This document shows, in pieces, positions 7,584 to 61,570 of a stretch of DNA of 64,000 bases. The notes beneath the pieces are model-generated. The model did not search any database and was not told the origin of the DNA. It worked only from the letters and a program-made list of their open reading frames with translations. Position 1 is the first letter of the stretch. Each line of letters starts with the position of its first letter. The translations under genes and the position numbers were made by a program. The stretch is taken from assembly GCA_023264445.1 (NCBI GenBank), contig JAHFMN010000002.1, forward strand, positions 66,365-130,364, written 5' to 3'. Source of the DNA: Candidatus Kaiserbacteria bacterium (lineage in GTDB: Bacteria > Patescibacteriota > Minisyncoccia > Phycocordibacterales > Phycocordibacteraceae).

Positions 7584-8528
7584 TTATGGAGAACAAGTCA
7601 GTGACACGCCGTAGCAAATGACACCATATTGACTTGTAGTGGTGTACGTCACCCCCATCGACTCTGAACACCCATTCGTGAGTGATGTCCATGAATAAGT
7701 AGAGAGTGAATGGCTAGCTATAAATGCGGCTCCGGCAGCAGTTATGGTAGCTTTCATCGTACCCCCATCTGCAGTGCACCCTGCGCTAAAGGCATTTTGA
7801 ATTTGTGAATCCCTCGGTACAACCGTACTGTCCCACCCAGGGATAATTCCAAAAAGATGAGTCGCCTTTTGGTACTGAACGGTTATACTTTTTCCACAAT
7901 AGAGAGTGACACTCGCATCCACACAGTTACCGCTAGCATTTTCAGTTTGGCAAGACGCGATGGTCGGGGATAATCCATTGCTGCAGCTATAGCTTGATGC
8001 ATAATTTTGACTTGAACATACTGCTCTCTCGAGATAGGGGCCACTGCTTCCGGTCGTGCATCCAGCTGATGGAGCAGTCACCGAGGTCTGGGACCCATTG
8101 TTTGAGGTGGATCCGGTTGTTAACGTTTGTCCAGGTGCGGTGTCGAGTGGGCGGAGGTTGAGAGAGAGATTCAGGATACTCGGGTTGATGATCGAGAAGA
8201 CGAGAACGGGAGAGAGAACAAGTACAAGGCCGAAGATCGCCTGCACGATGCGTCCTTTTGCATCCGTTAGCTTGCTAACGTTTTCTTTATTAACCGCAAT
8301 CTCAAGCCCACCCCAGATGATTTCTATGACGGCAAGAGCTGCAGCGAGCCCAATGAGGTATTTGTAGAGATTATTGAAGAAGTTTGCGAGCGATTCTGAA
8401 TTGGCGATGGCCGAACTGGGATCAGTAAGTCCTGGAATTGGTGCGAGGGCAACGAATTCCTCCGCTAAGACATGAGGTGCTATCCCGAAGAGAAGGAAGC
8501 TACCTGCGATAAATAGTATTTTTTTCAT
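7584..8528 (-). CDS. pilin-like protein: signal peptide, two hydrophobic helices (VirB2/TrbC-like topology), Cys-rich C-terminal domain
   Basis: MKKILFIAGSFLLFGIAPHVLA signal; helices LYKYLIGLAAALAVIEIIWGGLEIAV and IVQAIFGLVLVLSPVLVFSII; at least 10 Cys in the C-terminal half; alternative starts at 8582 and 8612. Confidence 0.5.
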   Translation of the reverse strand: MKKILFIAGSFLLFGIAPHVLAEEFVALAPIPGLTDPSSAIANSESLANFFNNLYKYLIGLAAALAVIEIIWGGLEIAVNKENVSKLTDAKGRIVQAIFGLVLVLSPVLVFSIINPSILNLSLNLRPLDTAPGQTLTTGSTSNNGSQTSVTAPSAGCTTGSSGPYLERAVCSSQNYASSYSCSNGLSPTIASCQTENASGNCVDASVTLYCGKSITVQYQKATHLFGIIPGWDSTVVPRDSQIQNAFSAGCTADGGTMKATITAAGAAFIASHSLSTYSWTSLTNGCSESMGVTYTTTSQYGVICYGVSLTCSP

Positions 8529-8608
8529 CCCGTTAGAAATAGAACTTACAAGGTAATCTTTCAATGTTCGTTTATTATTCATGCTTTGCTCGTTATTTCT
8601 AACGGGAT
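8527..8608 (-). promoter_or_regulatory. 15-bp perfect inverted repeat (atcccgttagaaata / tatttctaacgggat) forming a large stem-loop in the leader of the pilin-like gene
   Basis: Arms at 8527-8541 and 8594-8608 read directly from the sequence. Confidence 0.45.
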
Positions 8609-9604
8609 TCATAGGCCGAAGAGATTAAATCCTTTTGTCGTGCCGAAGGAGAGTGAGAGATTTGTAGAAGCTCTCATATAGTCGCCAGAGGAAGCGACGA
8701 GTGAAAGAGAGGCACTTCCCTGCCCGTTCCCAGAGGGTCGCAGGGTTATTATGCCTCCCGTCTGCGCGTGTACACCGTTGAGGAACCACTCGAGAGTAGG
8801 TGAACCGCGCGACGTCCCGAAGGAAAACGGGGCGGCAAAAAGTGTTGCCTCGGCACTCTTGATGCTATAGGAGCCGAAAAGTGCATGGTCGAAGCGGACT
8901 CCAAGGAGTGGATCGTTCTCATAGATGCGCACTGAAGGATCGAGAGCGGAGAGTGAGAGAGTAGAACCACCTACCAAGCTTCCATCTTGGCTCATGACCG
9001 AGACCGAGACTTCGCGGGAACGGTATTGGAGTGGAGAGGCGACCATAATCGCCTCTTTACCAATACCAGAAGCGTTTGTGATCTGTGCCTTATCAACTAT
9101 CCATGTGTAGGAAAGTGTATGTGGATCAAGCGCCTTCCCGCTCGCATTTCTCATGTTCGCAATGGCGACAACTCGCACATTCCCCTCAAGCGGTACCGAA
9201 GGTTTTCCCGGATACAGTGGCGGAGCCGAGGAGATCGGCTCCGCCACAAGCGCGACATCTTGGGGTTGAATAGCAATTGATTGAGAGTACTGTGTCCCGC
9301 CAGACGTTATAGAGACCTCTACCTGTGTCACAGCCCCAGCTTTGCCGAGCGTAACGGTCATCGGCTGTATGTTGCCTTTATAGATATTCTTTCCGGCAAC
9401 CATGACAGACATCGACGCATTCGTTAGGTCAATAGTGGAAGAAAGGAATGAAAGTGTAGCTTGACCATATGGCATCGGATACTGCGGAGATATTGAAACA
9501 GAAAATGAGGAAGCACTACTGCCAAAGTCTCCGAGAGATTGTGCTGAGATTGAAAGAGGCAGTAAAAGCGCAATAGCAAGAGCGACAGGTGGTCCGAAGC
9601 GCAT
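8609..9604 (-). CDS. hypothetical secreted protein (signal peptide), T4SS-like operon member
   Basis: MRFGPPVALAIALLLPLSISAQS signal; 4-nt overlap with the downstream gene. Confidence 0.55.
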   Translation of the reverse strand: MRFGPPVALAIALLLPLSISAQSLGDFGSSASSFSVSISPQYPMPYGQATLSFLSSTIDLTNASMSVMVAGKNIYKGNIQPMTVTLGKAGAVTQVEVSITSGGTQYSQSIAIQPQDVALVAEPISSAPPLYPGKPSVPLEGNVRVVAIANMRNASGKALDPHTLSYTWIVDKAQITNASGIGKEAIMVASPLQYRSREVSVSVMSQDGSLVGGSTLSLSALDPSVRIYENDPLLGVRFDHALFGSYSIKSAEATLFAAPFSFGTSRGSPTLEWFLNGVHAQTGGIITLRPSGNGQGSASLSLVASSGDYMRASTNLSLSFGTTKGFNLFGL

Positions 9605-9633: not shown

Positions 9634-10317
9634 TTATGCCGCTTTCCGTGCTCCCTCGGGGATTTCCTCGGCAGCGTATGCAGCATCATTTGATGCTTCT
9701 TGCTCTGTCTGTGCTATTTGACTAGCTTGATACTGCATTAGTTGTGCCTCCATCATGGCTTGCTGCCGCTGCTTTTGCTGTAGTGCGCCCTGCTCTTGTT
9801 GATATTTCTTCATCTTCGCCTTTTCTGATTTGATTTGGATGTGGTACATCCGCCACGTGGAAAGGGTGAATGAAGGGATGGCTCCAATAAGAGGGACTTC
9901 AGCGATGGCGAGACTGGCGACGAACCAGAGCGCGTGCCCAGCCTCTTCTTTAAATATGCGCGCGTTCATGAGCATGAGCATGAGACCAATGACGAGCCAG
10001 CCCAAAAACCCGGTAGCCATGGCCATGATGACACCGAATGTCTCAATTGCGCCTACACCGAAGAATCCCAATCCTCCAGCAATAGTGGTGCACCCTGCCG
10101 CCACAGCTTTCCCTGCTATGCCCGCCATGCTCGTCCCGGCCGCACTAGTAGCGGTAGCCGTACAAGCAACCGCAGCAACTACGGGTCCGAAGAACCAGAA
10201 GAATTCAAAAAAAATACGCAGGAGATCGAAAACGACGGCTACCGTAAGGACTGGTGATGCCTTCGGCCAGGTCATTACCGGCGGAGCCGGAGGAGGTTCA
10301 TTTCTTTTCAGTGGCAT
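9634..10317 (-). CDS. polytopic Gly/Ala-rich membrane protein with a Gln-rich C-terminal tail; possible T4SS inner-membrane component
   Basis: About 4 TM segments; start overlaps the VirB4-like stop by 20 nt. Confidence 0.55.
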   Translation of the reverse strand: MPLKRNEPPPAPPVMTWPKASPVLTVAVVFDLLRIFFEFFWFFGPVVAAVACTATATSAAGTSMAGIAGKAVAAGCTTIAGGLGFFGVGAIETFGVIMAMATGFLGWLVIGLMLMLMNARIFKEEAGHALWFVASLAIAEVPLIGAIPSFTLSTWRMYHIQIKSEKAKMKKYQQEQGALQQKQRQQAMMEAQLMQYQASQIAQTEQEASNDAAYAAEEIPEGARKAA

Positions 10318-12115
10318 AACGCTCCTTCTCTGCCTTTATCGCAAGGAGCTGGGAAGGATCGGACGTGATGATCTGGTCTTCCGTGTAGCTTGCGACGACC
10401 TTGATAGCAACGTGCTTCAGTCCCGCGAAGAAGAGTCCTTCTCCTACCCCCGCTTCGAGTAGTAGGTATTTTTCCTCATCAGTGAGGTTGAAGGTCTGCT
10501 GTAGCACATCGATCGTCGTTGGGGACTGCTTCAACAAGAGCTGTAATGAAGAGTTCGTGAGAATCGGCCGCCCATAGGGGCTCTTGAGGAAATCTTCCAC
10601 ATCCTGTGTGATGGTACAGACCCCGAGAAAATACTTGCGTCCACGCTTCGCGACAGAGTAGAGGAAGGATGCCGTATCTTCGCTCTTCATCATCCACCAT
10701 GCCTCATCGATAATGAGCAGACGCTTCTTCAGTTCATGGCGGATTTCGTTCCAGATATAGTGAGTGATGATGTACATTGCGACTGACTTCAATTCATCCT
10801 CCATATCGCGCACGGAGAAGACTATGAATTGCTGCTTGATGTCGATGTTGGTCGGTTGATTCATAAATCCCGCCCAGGTGCCGTGAGTGTATTTTGAAAG
10901 GCGTATGACGAGAGATTCGCTCCCTTCCATGCCAGAGAGCACCTGCTCGAAATCGGAGAGGAGCGGTGGTTCCGCACCGGTGAAGTCGACATCTCCAGTG
11001 ATGTCTTTGAGGGCATAGGTTTCGCTCACCGCGCGATCGATGATGGCGTCCTCCTCAGGCGTGAGGCCGCCGAGCATGATGCGGAAGAGCCCGACGAGCG
11101 AGATAATGTTGGAACGTAGGATATCTTTCGGGTCCTCATCGCTTTTTACCGGTGGCAGGTCAAACGGATTGATATGGTGTTCGGAGGAAAGTGAAATATG
11201 GAAAGAGCGCCCACCTGTCGCCTCTGCAAGCTGTTCGTATTCGCGCTCAGGGTCGATGACAATGATATCCGTACCAAACATGAGAGAACGAAGCACTTCA
11301 AGCTTTGTCGCATAGCTCTTTCCGGAGCCGGATTTGGCGAAGACGACGGAATTGTAGTTCTCGAGGGAGAATCGGTCGAAGAGGATGAGCGAGGAGTTAT
11401 GGCGATTGATGCCATAGAGGATGCCGCGGTCGCTCGTGAGATCAAAGGAGACGAATGGAAAGATTGATGAGAGCGGCGAAGAATTCAATTTTGAATTCAC
11501 GAGAAGCTCATCGGTGCCAAGCGGTAGGCAGGAGCGGAATCCCTGTTCCTGCTGAAACAGCGCCGGCTTCGTGTAGACGAGCTTTGCATCAAGGATGCCG
11601 CGTATCTCGCCTTCAGTCTTATCAATTTCCTCCCGGGAATCACCGTAGAGGGCAAGGTAGATGCCGACGTCAAAAAGCTTCTCTTGTGCCTGCTGCAGAC
11701 TATCGCGCAGGCTCTCGAGGTCCTGGTAGGCAGTGTCGAGGAGTGGATCGCGCACGAGTCCTTTTGCTTCACGCTCGCTGATCTGACTCTGTACTTCGGC
11801 CACCTTTTTCTGGAAGCTGCGGAGCGCTTGTTCGGTTTCAACTGGATGGATGAATATCGAAGCATCAAGTACGGTGTCCAGATTGATAATTGGAGAGAAC
11901 CAGCCATCGGAGAGGAATCGCGGGTAGGAAATAGTGTAGAAAGACCGGACGAACTTTTCTCCGAGCTCTAGCTCACGGGAACCGATCTTCAGCGCGGTCG
12001 GGGCGATAGTGTCCACAAGATCCAGCGCCCCTTGCTTGTAAATATCCTTCGGGAGCACGGGAACCACCATCGGGGATTGCTCGTTTTTGCGCTTGAGAAA
12101 ATCAAGTAAAGCCAT
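10298..12115 (-). CDS. VirB4/TrbE/CagE-family type IV secretion ATPase
   Basis: Walker A FAKSGSGKSY, Walker B LLIIDEAWWMM, C-terminal GVCTITQDVEDF motif typical of VirB4; start taken at MALLDFLKRK (12115). Confidence 0.85.
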   Translation of the reverse strand: MALLDFLKRKNEQSPMVVPVLPKDIYKQGALDLVDTIAPTALKIGSRELELGEKFVRSFYTISYPRFLSDGWFSPIINLDTVLDASIFIHPVETEQALRSFQKKVAEVQSQISEREAKGLVRDPLLDTAYQDLESLRDSLQQAQEKLFDVGIYLALYGDSREEIDKTEGEIRGILDAKLVYTKPALFQQEQGFRSCLPLGTDELLVNSKLNSSPLSSIFPFVSFDLTSDRGILYGINRHNSSLILFDRFSLENYNSVVFAKSGSGKSYATKLEVLRSLMFGTDIIVIDPEREYEQLAEATGGRSFHISLSSEHHINPFDLPPVKSDEDPKDILRSNIISLVGLFRIMLGGLTPEEDAIIDRAVSETYALKDITGDVDFTGAEPPLLSDFEQVLSGMEGSESLVIRLSKYTHGTWAGFMNQPTNIDIKQQFIVFSVRDMEDELKSVAMYIITHYIWNEIRHELKKRLLIIDEAWWMMKSEDTASFLYSVAKRGRKYFLGVCTITQDVEDFLKSPYGRPILTNSSLQLLLKQSPTTIDVLQQTFNLTDEEKYLLLEAGVGEGLFFAGLKHVAIKVVASYTEDQIITSDPSQLLAIKAEKERYATEKK

Positions 12116-12116
12116 A

Positions 12117-12752
12117 TCAGTTGTCGAGGCGGATAGGATTCTCCAATTCGCCCGGGTTAAACGAGCGATACATGAGCTCAATGACTTCTTCGGTTCCAAG
12201 CGGGACGGCGCGCACACCGGTGCCGGAAAGACTGCTTGCGATAAGCATTAGCCGCTGCTCGAGTTGCGCACGATCTTCTTCAAACGAACTTTCTGCAGCG
12301 GCGCTCTGCGCAGAAGCATTCCCCTTCCGCAAGAAGCCGACGGCGCGCGCGGCGGAGACACGGGGAGCATACGGCACGACGATGTAGAACGATTTCGTCA
12401 TAATGTTCGCGTGGTCGGTGAAGGAGCGGACGAATTCAATATATTCGCGCAACTGAATCCGCATAAGCTCTGTCTTTTGCCCTGGGGCTTTTTCCTCTAG
12501 AAGGGCGAGATACGGGCGCAAATCCATCTTGCGTGAGTTCACGACGATCTGGACGGAGAAATCGATTGTATTGAGGAAATTCTGGAAGCCAAGCGTGATG
12601 GCGCGCTGTTCGTCGGCCGATTTCAATCCGAAGTTGATTGAGGAACAGATGAGTACGCCGCGATAGCCCCCATCCTTCAACACGATGACGCCGTTCCGGA
12701 TCTCCTTTACCGGGACAAATTGCTGCGTTGCTCCTGAAGGTGCGGTTGCCAT
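12117..12752 (-). CDS. hypothetical soluble protein between the PrgI-like and VirB4-like genes
   Basis: Start at MATAPSG (12752); no recognisable motif; operon position only. Confidence 0.5.
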   Translation of the reverse strand: MATAPSGATQQFVPVKEIRNGVIVLKDGGYRGVLICSSINFGLKSADEQRAITLGFQNFLNTIDFSVQIVVNSRKMDLRPYLALLEEKAPGQKTELMRIQLREYIEFVRSFTDHANIMTKSFYIVVPYAPRVSAARAVGFLRKGNASAQSAAAESSFEEDRAQLEQRLMLIASSLSGTGVRAVPLGTEEVIELMYRSFNPGELENPIRLDN

Positions 12753-19086: not shown

Positions 19087-19094
19087 GCGCCCAG

Positions 19095-19145
19095 CCCTAG
19101 TGGAGAAGGACAGTCCTTCTCCACTAGGGCTGTCTTTCTTTTTCG
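19095..19145 (+). terminator. rho-independent terminator (ccctagtggagaagga-cagt-ccttctccactaggg followed by a T-run); may also serve convergent recJ
   Basis: Read directly. Confidence 0.6.
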
Positions 19146-61502: not shown

Positions 61503-61515
61503 CAAAGACCGCCAA

Positions 61516-61570
61516 GAAAATGAAAAACCGCTCTCACGAGCGGTTTTTCATTTTCTTGCATCTTTTTGAG
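61516..61570 (+). terminator. 18-bp perfect-stem hairpin (gaaaatgaaaaaccgctc-tcac-gagcggtttttcattttc) followed by a T-rich tract, between rpsJ and rplC
   Basis: Read directly; A-tract before and U-tract after make it bidirectional-capable. Confidence 0.55.

Follow-up and report, generated by a model that had tools for sequence, protein, structure and literature searches.

Introduction

Patescibacteria, also known as the candidate phyla radiation (CPR), have tiny genomes. Stop/start overlaps of the ATGA type permit termination-reinitiation, and the propilins of F TraA and Agrobacterium VirB2 are made with unusually long cleaved leaders, of about 47-51 residues. VirB2-like pilins have been found in 1,948 Patescibacteria assemblies, often close to the origin, according to PMC12102498. 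Among the small mobile repeats of bacteria, the Correia elements of Neisseria have ends whose hairpins can be cut by RNase III (review PMC10969869), and the Rickettsia palindromic elements (RPEs), in the part of the same review that summarises Ogata et al. 2000/2002, insert in the bodies of open reading frames (ORFs) and encode a conserved peptide of about 45-50 residues. Here we analyse an inverted repeat at the start of a type IV secretion system (T4SS) pilin gene of a Candidatus Kaiserbacteria bacterium, which lies on a stretch of 64,000 nt of contig JAHFMN010000002.1 (assembly GCA_023264445.1, positions 66,365 to 130,364), called the window in what follows. [quoted passage not shown]

The inverted repeat and the insertion at the pilin start

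The features of the pilin start, with target-site duplication abbreviated as TSD, are the following:

8608-8594, minus strand: inverted-repeat arm 1, ATCCCGTTAGAAATA, 15 nt
8541-8527, minus strand: inverted-repeat arm 2, TATTTCTAACGGGAT, 15 nt
8610..8612, minus strand: ATG in the ATGA overlap, ancestral coupled start position and candidate start of an extended pre-pilin
8608..8611, minus strand: TSD copy 1 (TGAA), which includes the stop of the upstream ORF, TGA 8611-8609; both flanking 4-mers are TGAA
8595..8607, minus strand: 5' TIR, TCCCGTTAGAAAT, inside arm 8594-8608; this 13-mer, with Y at position 1, is shared by at least 120 metagenome copies
8541..8594, minus strand: element interior, 54 nt, A-rich, containing the in-frame ATG 8582-8580
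8580..8582, minus strand: ATG in the element loop, in frame, candidate start and the one used by the public annotation (P0001, 332 aa)
8528..8540, minus strand: 3' TIR, ATTTCTAACGGGA, ending in A8528, which provides the A for the regenerated ATG
8524..8527, minus strand: TSD copy 2 (TGAA), contributing the TG to ATG 8528-8526 and the initial A to the Lys codon

The original prediction, made from this DNA alone, had reported a perfect 15-bp inverted repeat at 8527..8608, and the repeat is indeed there: the arms are complementary at 15 of 15 positions and 52 nt separate them. A perfect 15-mer inverted pair with its arms at most 150 nt apart appeared in none of 100 first-order Markov resamples of the window, and the real window has four such loci, two of them hairpins that resemble terminators, with T-runs behind them, and one a palindrome without a loop. 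The folding energy, which had been proposed as a check, is unusual as well, since the segment 8630-8500 folded as minus-strand RNA reaches a minimum free energy of -27.3 kcal/mol as compared with -18.2 +/- 3.3 in 200 shuffles (z = -2.8), none of which matched the real fold, and the 15-bp stem is its dominant feature. The last two pairs of this stem contain the A and T of ATG 8528-8526. A scan of 8300-8800 with the covariance models of Rfam 15 at a permissive E-value gave no significant match, the best having E = 0.76 and 17 bits against a threshold of 40 bits.

The comparison with relatives of the pilin points to the origin of the repeat. Relatives that lack the insert start at the ATGA, where ..CTATGAAAAAA reads MKK, and their empty site, TTCGGCCTATGAAAAAAAT.. 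/ ..CGGCCTATGAAAAAA.., is equal to the window sequence minus the element and one TGAA, of which the empty site has a single copy. The element of the window measures 80 nt with TIRs of 13 nt each, and the 15-bp arm is composed of the TIR, one inner base pair and one fortuitous pair between the two TSD copies. This arrangement would arise if the element had inserted in the ATGA stop/start overlap of the upstream ORF and the pilin gene, duplicating the 4-bp target TGAA; the left TGAA would preserve the upstream stop and the old ATG (8612), and the terminal purine of the element together with the right TGAA would rebuild ATG 8528 before the original Met-Lys-Lys signal peptide. In general terms, because the TIR ends in a purine and TGAA is the common target, an element that enters ATGAA has the old ATG preserved on its left side and a new A/G-TG-A created on its right, and this regeneration of start codons explains how the elements can sit on them without destroying genes. 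Filled and empty sites of the pilin, along with the reading frames described below, show that a MITE-like element split the ATGA junction and rebuilt the start codon, and that it has been kept in frame and open by the lineage.

The element family outside the pilin locus

The 13-nt ends, YCCCGTTAGAAAT / ATTTCTAACGGGR, are found in the window and in at least 120 metagenome contigs, where they bound segments of 29-200 nt. These contigs were obtained by scanning with a degenerate pattern of both arms, the left one anchored on ATGAR, and the counts given here for the general family refer to the 120 elements listed on matching contigs. For 102 of the 120, the ATG (46) or GTG (57) formed by the last arm base and the next two bases opens a long ORF, a share of copies at start codons that the ATGAR anchor inflates and in which the right-hand ATG/GTG is an automatic result of the duplication; the scan pattern did not force the right-hand 4-mers, the orientation bias or the long ORFs. 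Ten of the adjoining ORFs were assigned by Pfam to MurG, TsaD, MetRS, DnaJ, GAPDH, NAD-epimerase, MiaA, acetate kinase, PheT and Dus, and their domains mostly begin within the first 4 residues (later in TsaD, Dus and PheT), hence in those ORFs with an early onset the junction codon is the genuine start.

Concerning the flanks, the 4-mers outside the arms are identical in 97 of the 120 copies. TGAA stands on both sides 88 times, and a left TGAG (n=12) is accompanied by a right TGAG nine times and by CGAG once; a left TGAA is found with a right TGAG in only 2 of 108 copies. The variable positions of the two ends change together, with C-G in 70 copies, T-A in 48 and 2 exceptions for one pair, and A-T in 104, G-C in 16 and no exceptions for another. 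Another 23 copies were recovered from the fetched loci with unconstrained flanks, and 15 of them are bordered by identical 4-mers where chance would give about 0.1; the ten 4-mers seen among these 15 are CGAG, TAAA, TCAA, CAAG, TTTA, TTCA, TGTA, TATG, TTAA and TGAA.

Several copies per contig are present in some metagenome loci (L082, L093, L112, L157 and L164, with about four in 8 kb of L093). At the murG locus the element is present in L082 and L203 and absent in L202, and MurG measures 403 aa when the gene caller reads through the element as compared with 371-376 aa in most homologues (P0121 / L203:301-384); the nearest named homologues in this example are Patescibacteria. The conserved TIRs, the 4-bp TSD, the small size and the presence/absence polymorphism are the traits by which a MITE is defined. 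The family is dispersed in Patescibacteria, with its surviving copies mostly placed exactly on start codons. An integron attC-like or a REP/RAYT-like nature was considered and rejected on the arm order, GTTAG...CTAAC, and the variable 4-bp duplication, a combination that to our knowledge neither of these systems produces.

Three copies lie on contigs of the viral collection IMG/VR (L204:3127-3203, L205:3246-3323 and L206:4676-4756), with flanking 4-mers that match at 3 of 4 positions. Nested or adjoining copies were also observed (L093:6794-6890, L092:1275-1400 and L095:1004-1100), one of them a copy with a TAAA duplication inside another copy, and short forms occur with loops of 3-27 nt, including L013:4379-4410 with the arm variant TTGGAAAT.

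The interior of the elements is variable and often contains stops. Loop lengths in the general family show no preference for a frame, a stop is found in the loop in 68 of the 120, and in-frame fusions amount to 26. A -10-like TAnnnT ending 6-10 nt before the left ATG is found in 36 of 119 copies against a background of about 14, which suggests that leaderless starts are common targets of the element. A fixed promoter upstream of the left arm as a part of the element was rejected, given that there is enrichment only, which fits some leaderless target genes, and a loop promoter in the general family was likewise discarded, as the -10-like boxes have no fixed spacing to the loop ATG.

The same set of copies is where a different explanation should be weighed, namely that the arms are a conserved host cis-element of Patescibacteria gene starts, a site for a translation factor or regulator made of an inverted pair around an A-rich initiation region, with the pilin as one of many genes that carry it. 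Such a site would account for arms that are nearly invariant across very different genomes with a free interior, for their position next to the start codon in those 102 copies and for their conservation in the old pilin copy. It would also fit the direction of the elements: an arm-like internal copy adjoins the left arm in 46 elements against 5 mirror arrangements, so that the orientation is strongly biased relative to the downstream gene, and loop ATGs are enriched in the frame of that gene, with 64 as compared with 18 and 24 in the other two frames. A host site is hard to reconcile, however, with the variable 4-bp direct repeats that flank copies in non-start contexts, with filled and empty sites at orthologous positions, with nested and clustered copies, with the absence of the element from most orthologous genes and with the single copy in the 64-kb window, and we consider it decidedly unlikely as the whole explanation; a domesticated role on top of mobility is possible.

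The pilin-lineage copies and their reading frame

As the conservation of the repeat in related genomes was one of the checks put forward originally, 76 genome loci encoding relatives of the pilin were examined. Most of them start the pilin directly at the ATGA overlap, and 13 of the 76 have an insert between the ATGA and the Lys-Lys codons, ten being canonical (the window, L003, L011, L015, L021, L024, L037, L043, L046 and L060) and three degenerate (L077, L031 and L004). The repeat is thus conserved in part of the family; at the protein level the insert is present in about 23 of the best 120 protein clusters.

In all 13 loci the insert keeps the frame and contains no stop. It translates as M-N-P-V/I-R-N-x4-M-...-I-S-N-G, where NPVRN and ISNG are the translated arms. 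The segment between the 13-nt repeats has 54, 51, 39, 36 or 30 nt in canonical copies and 24 nt (L031) or 9 nt (L077) in degenerate ones, and the gaps of the lineage alignment, all of them multiples of three, are confined to the part from the second Met to the right arm. The codon that matches ATG 8528, just after ISNG, is GCN or ACN in 5 of the 13 loci and GTG in two, and a start codon at this junction is absent in about 10 of the 23 insert-bearing protein clusters; the genomes concerned must initiate farther upstream, either at the ATG coupled through the ATGA or at the conserved codon for Met-11 (8582 here). The ATG at codon 11, with a fixed offset of 12 nt from the left arm, is present in 10 of 10 canonical pilin copies as compared with 4 of the 120 listed general copies, and this fixed offset together with the residual similarity of the loops indicates that the pilin copies are homologous. 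The insertion at the pilin locus is old and common to many related genomes.

These data bear directly on the interpretation favoured by the original prediction, in which a dedicated RNA hairpin lies in the untranslated leader of the pilin, translation starts at 8528 and the stem stabilises or processes the transcript, as ahead of highly expressed pilins, or masks the ribosome-binding site. The stem is stable and non-random, it is kept in at least ten related pilin loci with arms conserved at synonymous sites and three compensated pairs, the junction ATG or GTG is retained in 8 of the 13 loci, and MITE repeats are RNase III targets in Neisseria (PMC10969869). The arms are not specific to the pilin, however, since they occur at unrelated gene starts with target-site duplications, which speaks against a hairpin that belongs to the pilin transcript as such. 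Every pilin locus has an uninterrupted in-frame ORF with indels in multiples of 3, the start codon at the junction is missing in the loci and protein clusters mentioned above, and most family members have no insert and start at the ATGA overlap. As for an occluding switch, there is no Shine-Dalgarno (SD) sequence to mask and the organism barely uses one. We therefore regard a dedicated leader hairpin as unlikely. Of the claim made for 8528, its place at the base of the stem stands, with the A and T of the codon in the last two pairs, and its role as the true start does not fit the loci and clusters in which this start codon is missing.

A DNA inversion (phase-variation) switch, with the 15-bp repeats as recombinase sites around an invertible 52-bp segment that toggles the pilin, was evaluated on the same copies. 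Pilins are classic phase-variable genes, and after inversion the loop would again contain no in-frame stop, an outcome with a chance of about 0.4. The copies at the pilin locus nevertheless all have one orientation, with the ATG at its fixed offset from the left arm, and the general family shows the 46:5 bias rather than a mix; in addition no recombinase gene lies beside the locus and 52 bp is very short for synapsis, which makes this switch extremely improbable.

A different in-frame insert occupies the same ATGA junction of the pilin in two further loci (L048:2911-3060 and L050:2971-3120), in which AAATCCG heptamers repeated in series (..KSEIRNPKSET..) precede an AT-rich stretch. The pilin ATGA junction seems to be prone to insertions.

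Start codon and translation signals

Three in-frame ATGs are candidates for the start of the pilin, 8612, 8582 and 8528. The original prediction had missed one of these in its account, the ATG at 8582, as well as the overlap of ATG 8612 with the upstream TGA (ATGA). No SD sequence precedes any of the three, and of the 60 window ORFs with a stop-to-stop length of at least about 200 codons, only 6 have an SD core before the first ATG. Translation of the pre-pilin probably starts at 8612, through termination-reinitiation, and/or at 8582 in the loop, and continues across the right repeat, which is read as ISNG. That the true start lies upstream and the repeat is translated had been named at the outset as what would overturn the leader hairpin, and it is the probable situation here, with the insert open and in frame in all pilin loci and its indels in multiples of three. 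Such read-through would lengthen the N-region of the signal peptide by 18-28 residues, and as the leader would be cleaved on export, the mature pilin would be unchanged.

A promoter in the loop, giving a leaderless mRNA at 8528, was tried and rejected, the sole minus-strand sigma-70-like match being weak (9/12). It should be mentioned that many long ORFs of the window (e.g. 9604, 5098, 39999, 41394 and 20867) have a -10-like box (TATACT, TAGAAT or CATAGT) ending 6-10 nt before the ATG, and leaderless mRNAs may be the norm in this organism.

Constraint on the arms and the stem

Within the pilin lineage the arms are much better conserved than the loops, with a mean pairwise identity of 0.87-0.90 against 0.49. 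Third-codon positions of the arms are 0.85 identical, as compared with 0.48 at synonymous third positions of invariant pilin-core residues, and the arm codons AGA, TCT, GTT, ATT and GGG are nearly fixed in hosts that prefer CGC, TCG/TCC, GTC, ATC and GGC/GGT. The identity of the arms and their off-preference codons imply that the pilin copy, which is old and apparently immobile, is under selection at the nucleotide level. The stem also emerges de novo from RNAalifold, where 86.7% of cells are paired as compared with 36-47% in slid controls, and three stem pairs show double changes, for example AAT>AAC with ATG>GTG (L003, L011) and AAAT>AGAC with ATTT>GTCT (L021). In the degenerate L077 and L031 the right arm and the peptide pattern outlast the decayed pairing, so that pairing is not the sole possible constraint. 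Either the stem or the sequence of the arms probably matters in the pilin lineage.

How this could act on the pilin can be pictured as follows. On the operon mRNA the repeats may pair in a 15-bp stem, which would hold 8582 in its A-rich loop and bury both 8528 and the stretch immediately following 8612 unless it is opened by ribosomes that come from the upstream ORF. In its simplest form, the idea would be that the stem makes translation of the pilin depend on ribosomes arriving from that ORF; alternatively, it may be a determinant of stability or RNase action, comparable to Correia elements. An effect of the conserved stem on pilin expression is in our view a serious possibility, although less likely than not.

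Several points weigh against the interpretation as a whole, that is, a transposed element whose stem is conserved and which is now read through, in addition to the inflation by the ATGAR anchor given above. No further copy was found in the 64-kb window (at most 2 mismatches plus a partner search), and an autonomous element or transposase with the same ends did not appear either, there being no two arms at a distance of 250-4000 nt in the fetched loci (1.27 Mb), to which this search was confined. The interiors are very heterogeneous and the ends almost invariant across genomes of 30-57% GC; invariant ends with free interiors are unusual for a purely selfish MITE, which hints at a host-level function of the ends. 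The insert-bearing pilins are scattered and not monophyletic in a quick neighbour-joining tree of a 109-aa region, a pattern that could reflect several precise losses, repeated gains or tree error, precise loss being plausible for a hairpin between direct repeats. At the RNA level the covariation in the pilin lineage is modest, with 39 of 500 shuffles reaching its score, and in the general family G.U mismatches are no more common than A.C ones, so that these data do not demonstrate selection on the RNA. Finally, which ATG is used is something that we infer.

The pilin gene and its surroundings

The pilin and its neighbours are made up of the following parts:

7584..8612, minus strand: pilin ORF, 342 codons from 8612, stop 7586-7584; VirB2-like T4SS pilin with a C-terminal Cys-rich domain
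8463..8528, minus strand: core signal peptide MKKILFIAGSFLLFGIAPHVLA, residues 29-50 numbered from 8612
8211..8399, minus strand: T4SS_pilin / TrbC-like two-helix core, residues 72-134, by Pfam and AlphaFold2 (AF2)
7587..8072, minus strand: C-terminal domain, residues 181-342, 10 conserved Cys, mixed alpha/beta, no known family
8609..9604, minus strand: upstream ORF, 331 aa, with a signal peptide and no family; its stop overlaps ATG 8612
10298..12217, minus strand: VirB4-like T4SS ATPase of the same cluster (TraG P-loop 91 bits, AAA_10, DUF87)

The description of the protein as a VirB2/TrbC-like hairpin pilin holds up well. Pfam T4SS_pilin (PF18895) matches residues 72-134 with 33.5 bits (cut-off 26.6), TrbC/VirB2 (PF04956) scores 27.6 bits, slightly below its cut-off of 27.9, and the AF2 model, with 30 homologues as input, has long helices at 72-107 and 112-142. 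The signal peptide, MKKILFIAGSFLLFGIAPHVLA|EE, is Sec-like, both the peptide and its cleavage site being judged by inspection alone, which agrees with the cleavable signal peptide predicted before; the homologue alignment keeps MKK, the hydrophobic stretch and a (V/A)xA motif (VLA in the leader). The Cys-rich C-terminal region is also borne out, with ten Cys in residues 185-340, of which eight are invariant and one nearly invariant across 30 homologues, and a confidently modelled domain at 181-342 (predicted local distance difference test values mostly 81-92 in blocks). This domain has no significant sequence match in Pfam, NCBIfam or the PDB and no fold match in the PDB, and the ORFs neighbouring the pilin gave nothing significant in sequence searches of the same three databases.

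The pilin locus lies 2-4 kb from dnaA, rpmH, rnpA and yidC, the ATG of ORF 8609..9604 has a -10-like TATACT 6 nt upstream, and the named homologues of the pilin belong to Minisyncoccota, Paceibacteria and Kaiserbacteria. The pilin gene and its T4SS context are hence of an already known kind, and the fused Cys-rich domain is uncharacterised. The 10-Cys domain (~160 residues) fused to a VirB2-like core is possibly a module of the pilus surface or for adhesion.

In nine relatives of the pilin (L005, L016, L019, L025, L030, L036, L039, L052 and L066) the reading frame before the two-helix core (upstream of the FFNNLYKY motif) contains long segments rich in Cys and Gly/Ser/Thr, and in L016 and L025, where a signal peptide is visible, the Cys-rich segments stand between it and the core. 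These pilins can thus carry extra Cys-rich modules at either end.

Among the other inverted pairs of the window, 316-353 is a perfect 38-bp palindrome with 19-nt arms and no loop, TAGCATGCACGGCTCCACC/GGTGGAGCCGTGCATGCTA, which spans the ATG at 320 of a 734-codon ORF and is unrelated in sequence to the MITE-like element. The perfect inverted repeats at 19092-19132 and 61513-61558, of 20 and 21 nt with loops of 1 and 4 nt, respectively, are followed by T-runs; they look like intrinsic terminators, the second one bidirectional.

Significance and comparison with known systems

A MITE-like, start-codon-regenerating family of Patescibacteria has apparently not been described so far, as a literature search returned no paper on the motif or on MITEs in Patescibacteria. 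A family with near-identical ends across lineages that regenerates start codons would be a new example of mobile DNA alongside extreme genome streamlining. It also raises a question of annotation: gene callers start these genes at three different codons, and many JGI and ENA calls add 'MNPVRN...ISNG' to housekeeping proteins, where the start in use decides whether such residues are real N-terminal extensions or artefacts. The essential T4SS pilin of these episymbionts may carry an element-derived leader, made under a conserved mRNA stem. As a tentative and rather speculative proposal, the element might be a portable 'gene-start cassette' found throughout Patescibacteria, which inserts at the TGAA of ATGAA starts, rebuilds the start and brings an A-rich loop with an in-frame ATG in a preferred orientation; its ends would serve as a hairpin or protein-binding site for the control or coupling of translation in SD-poor, largely leaderless hosts, and at the pilin it would have been long domesticated to tune T4SS pilin output with respect to the upstream gene.

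With respect to the T4SS described for Patescibacteria (PMC12102498), the locus shares the dnaA-proximal cluster, the VirB4-like ATPase and a pilin detected by PF18895/PF04956, and differs in the C-terminal 10-Cys pilin domain and the repeat at the pilin start, neither of which is described in the passages searched of that paper.

ATGA translational coupling is recognisable in that relatives without the insert start the pilin at the ATGA overlap and the window retains the ATGA, the difference being that an 84-nt in-frame insert, able to fold back, parts the overlap from the original second codon here. As regards the leaders of F TraA and Agrobacterium VirB2, a leader of 40-50 residues would suit this pilin; here, in contrast, the extra length would come from a transposable-element insertion and is absent in most orthologues.

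The RPEs, as summarised in PMC10969869, resemble the present elements as palindromic mobile repeats of a reduced-genome, host-dependent lineage that are tolerated in frame in coding genes, to which they add a peptide. They differ in that the insertion here is at the start codon, conservation is confined to the two ends, and the extra residues belong to the N-region of a signal peptide and are presumably removed.

The Correia elements of Neisseria, which are bacterial MITEs, are alike in being short and non-coding with conserved TIRs and short TSDs, and in that many copies adjoin gene starts and are co-transcribed, with paired ends that form RNA hairpins. Unlike them, the present family has no cognate transposase found in the 1.27 Mb of fetched loci, its members are much shorter (29-200 nt) with very heterogeneous interiors, and its TSD is of 4 bp, often TGAA, instead of TA. 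Moreover, its ends are conserved across many species and not within one genus, and it is the terminal purine of the element together with the duplicated TGA that rebuilds a start codon.

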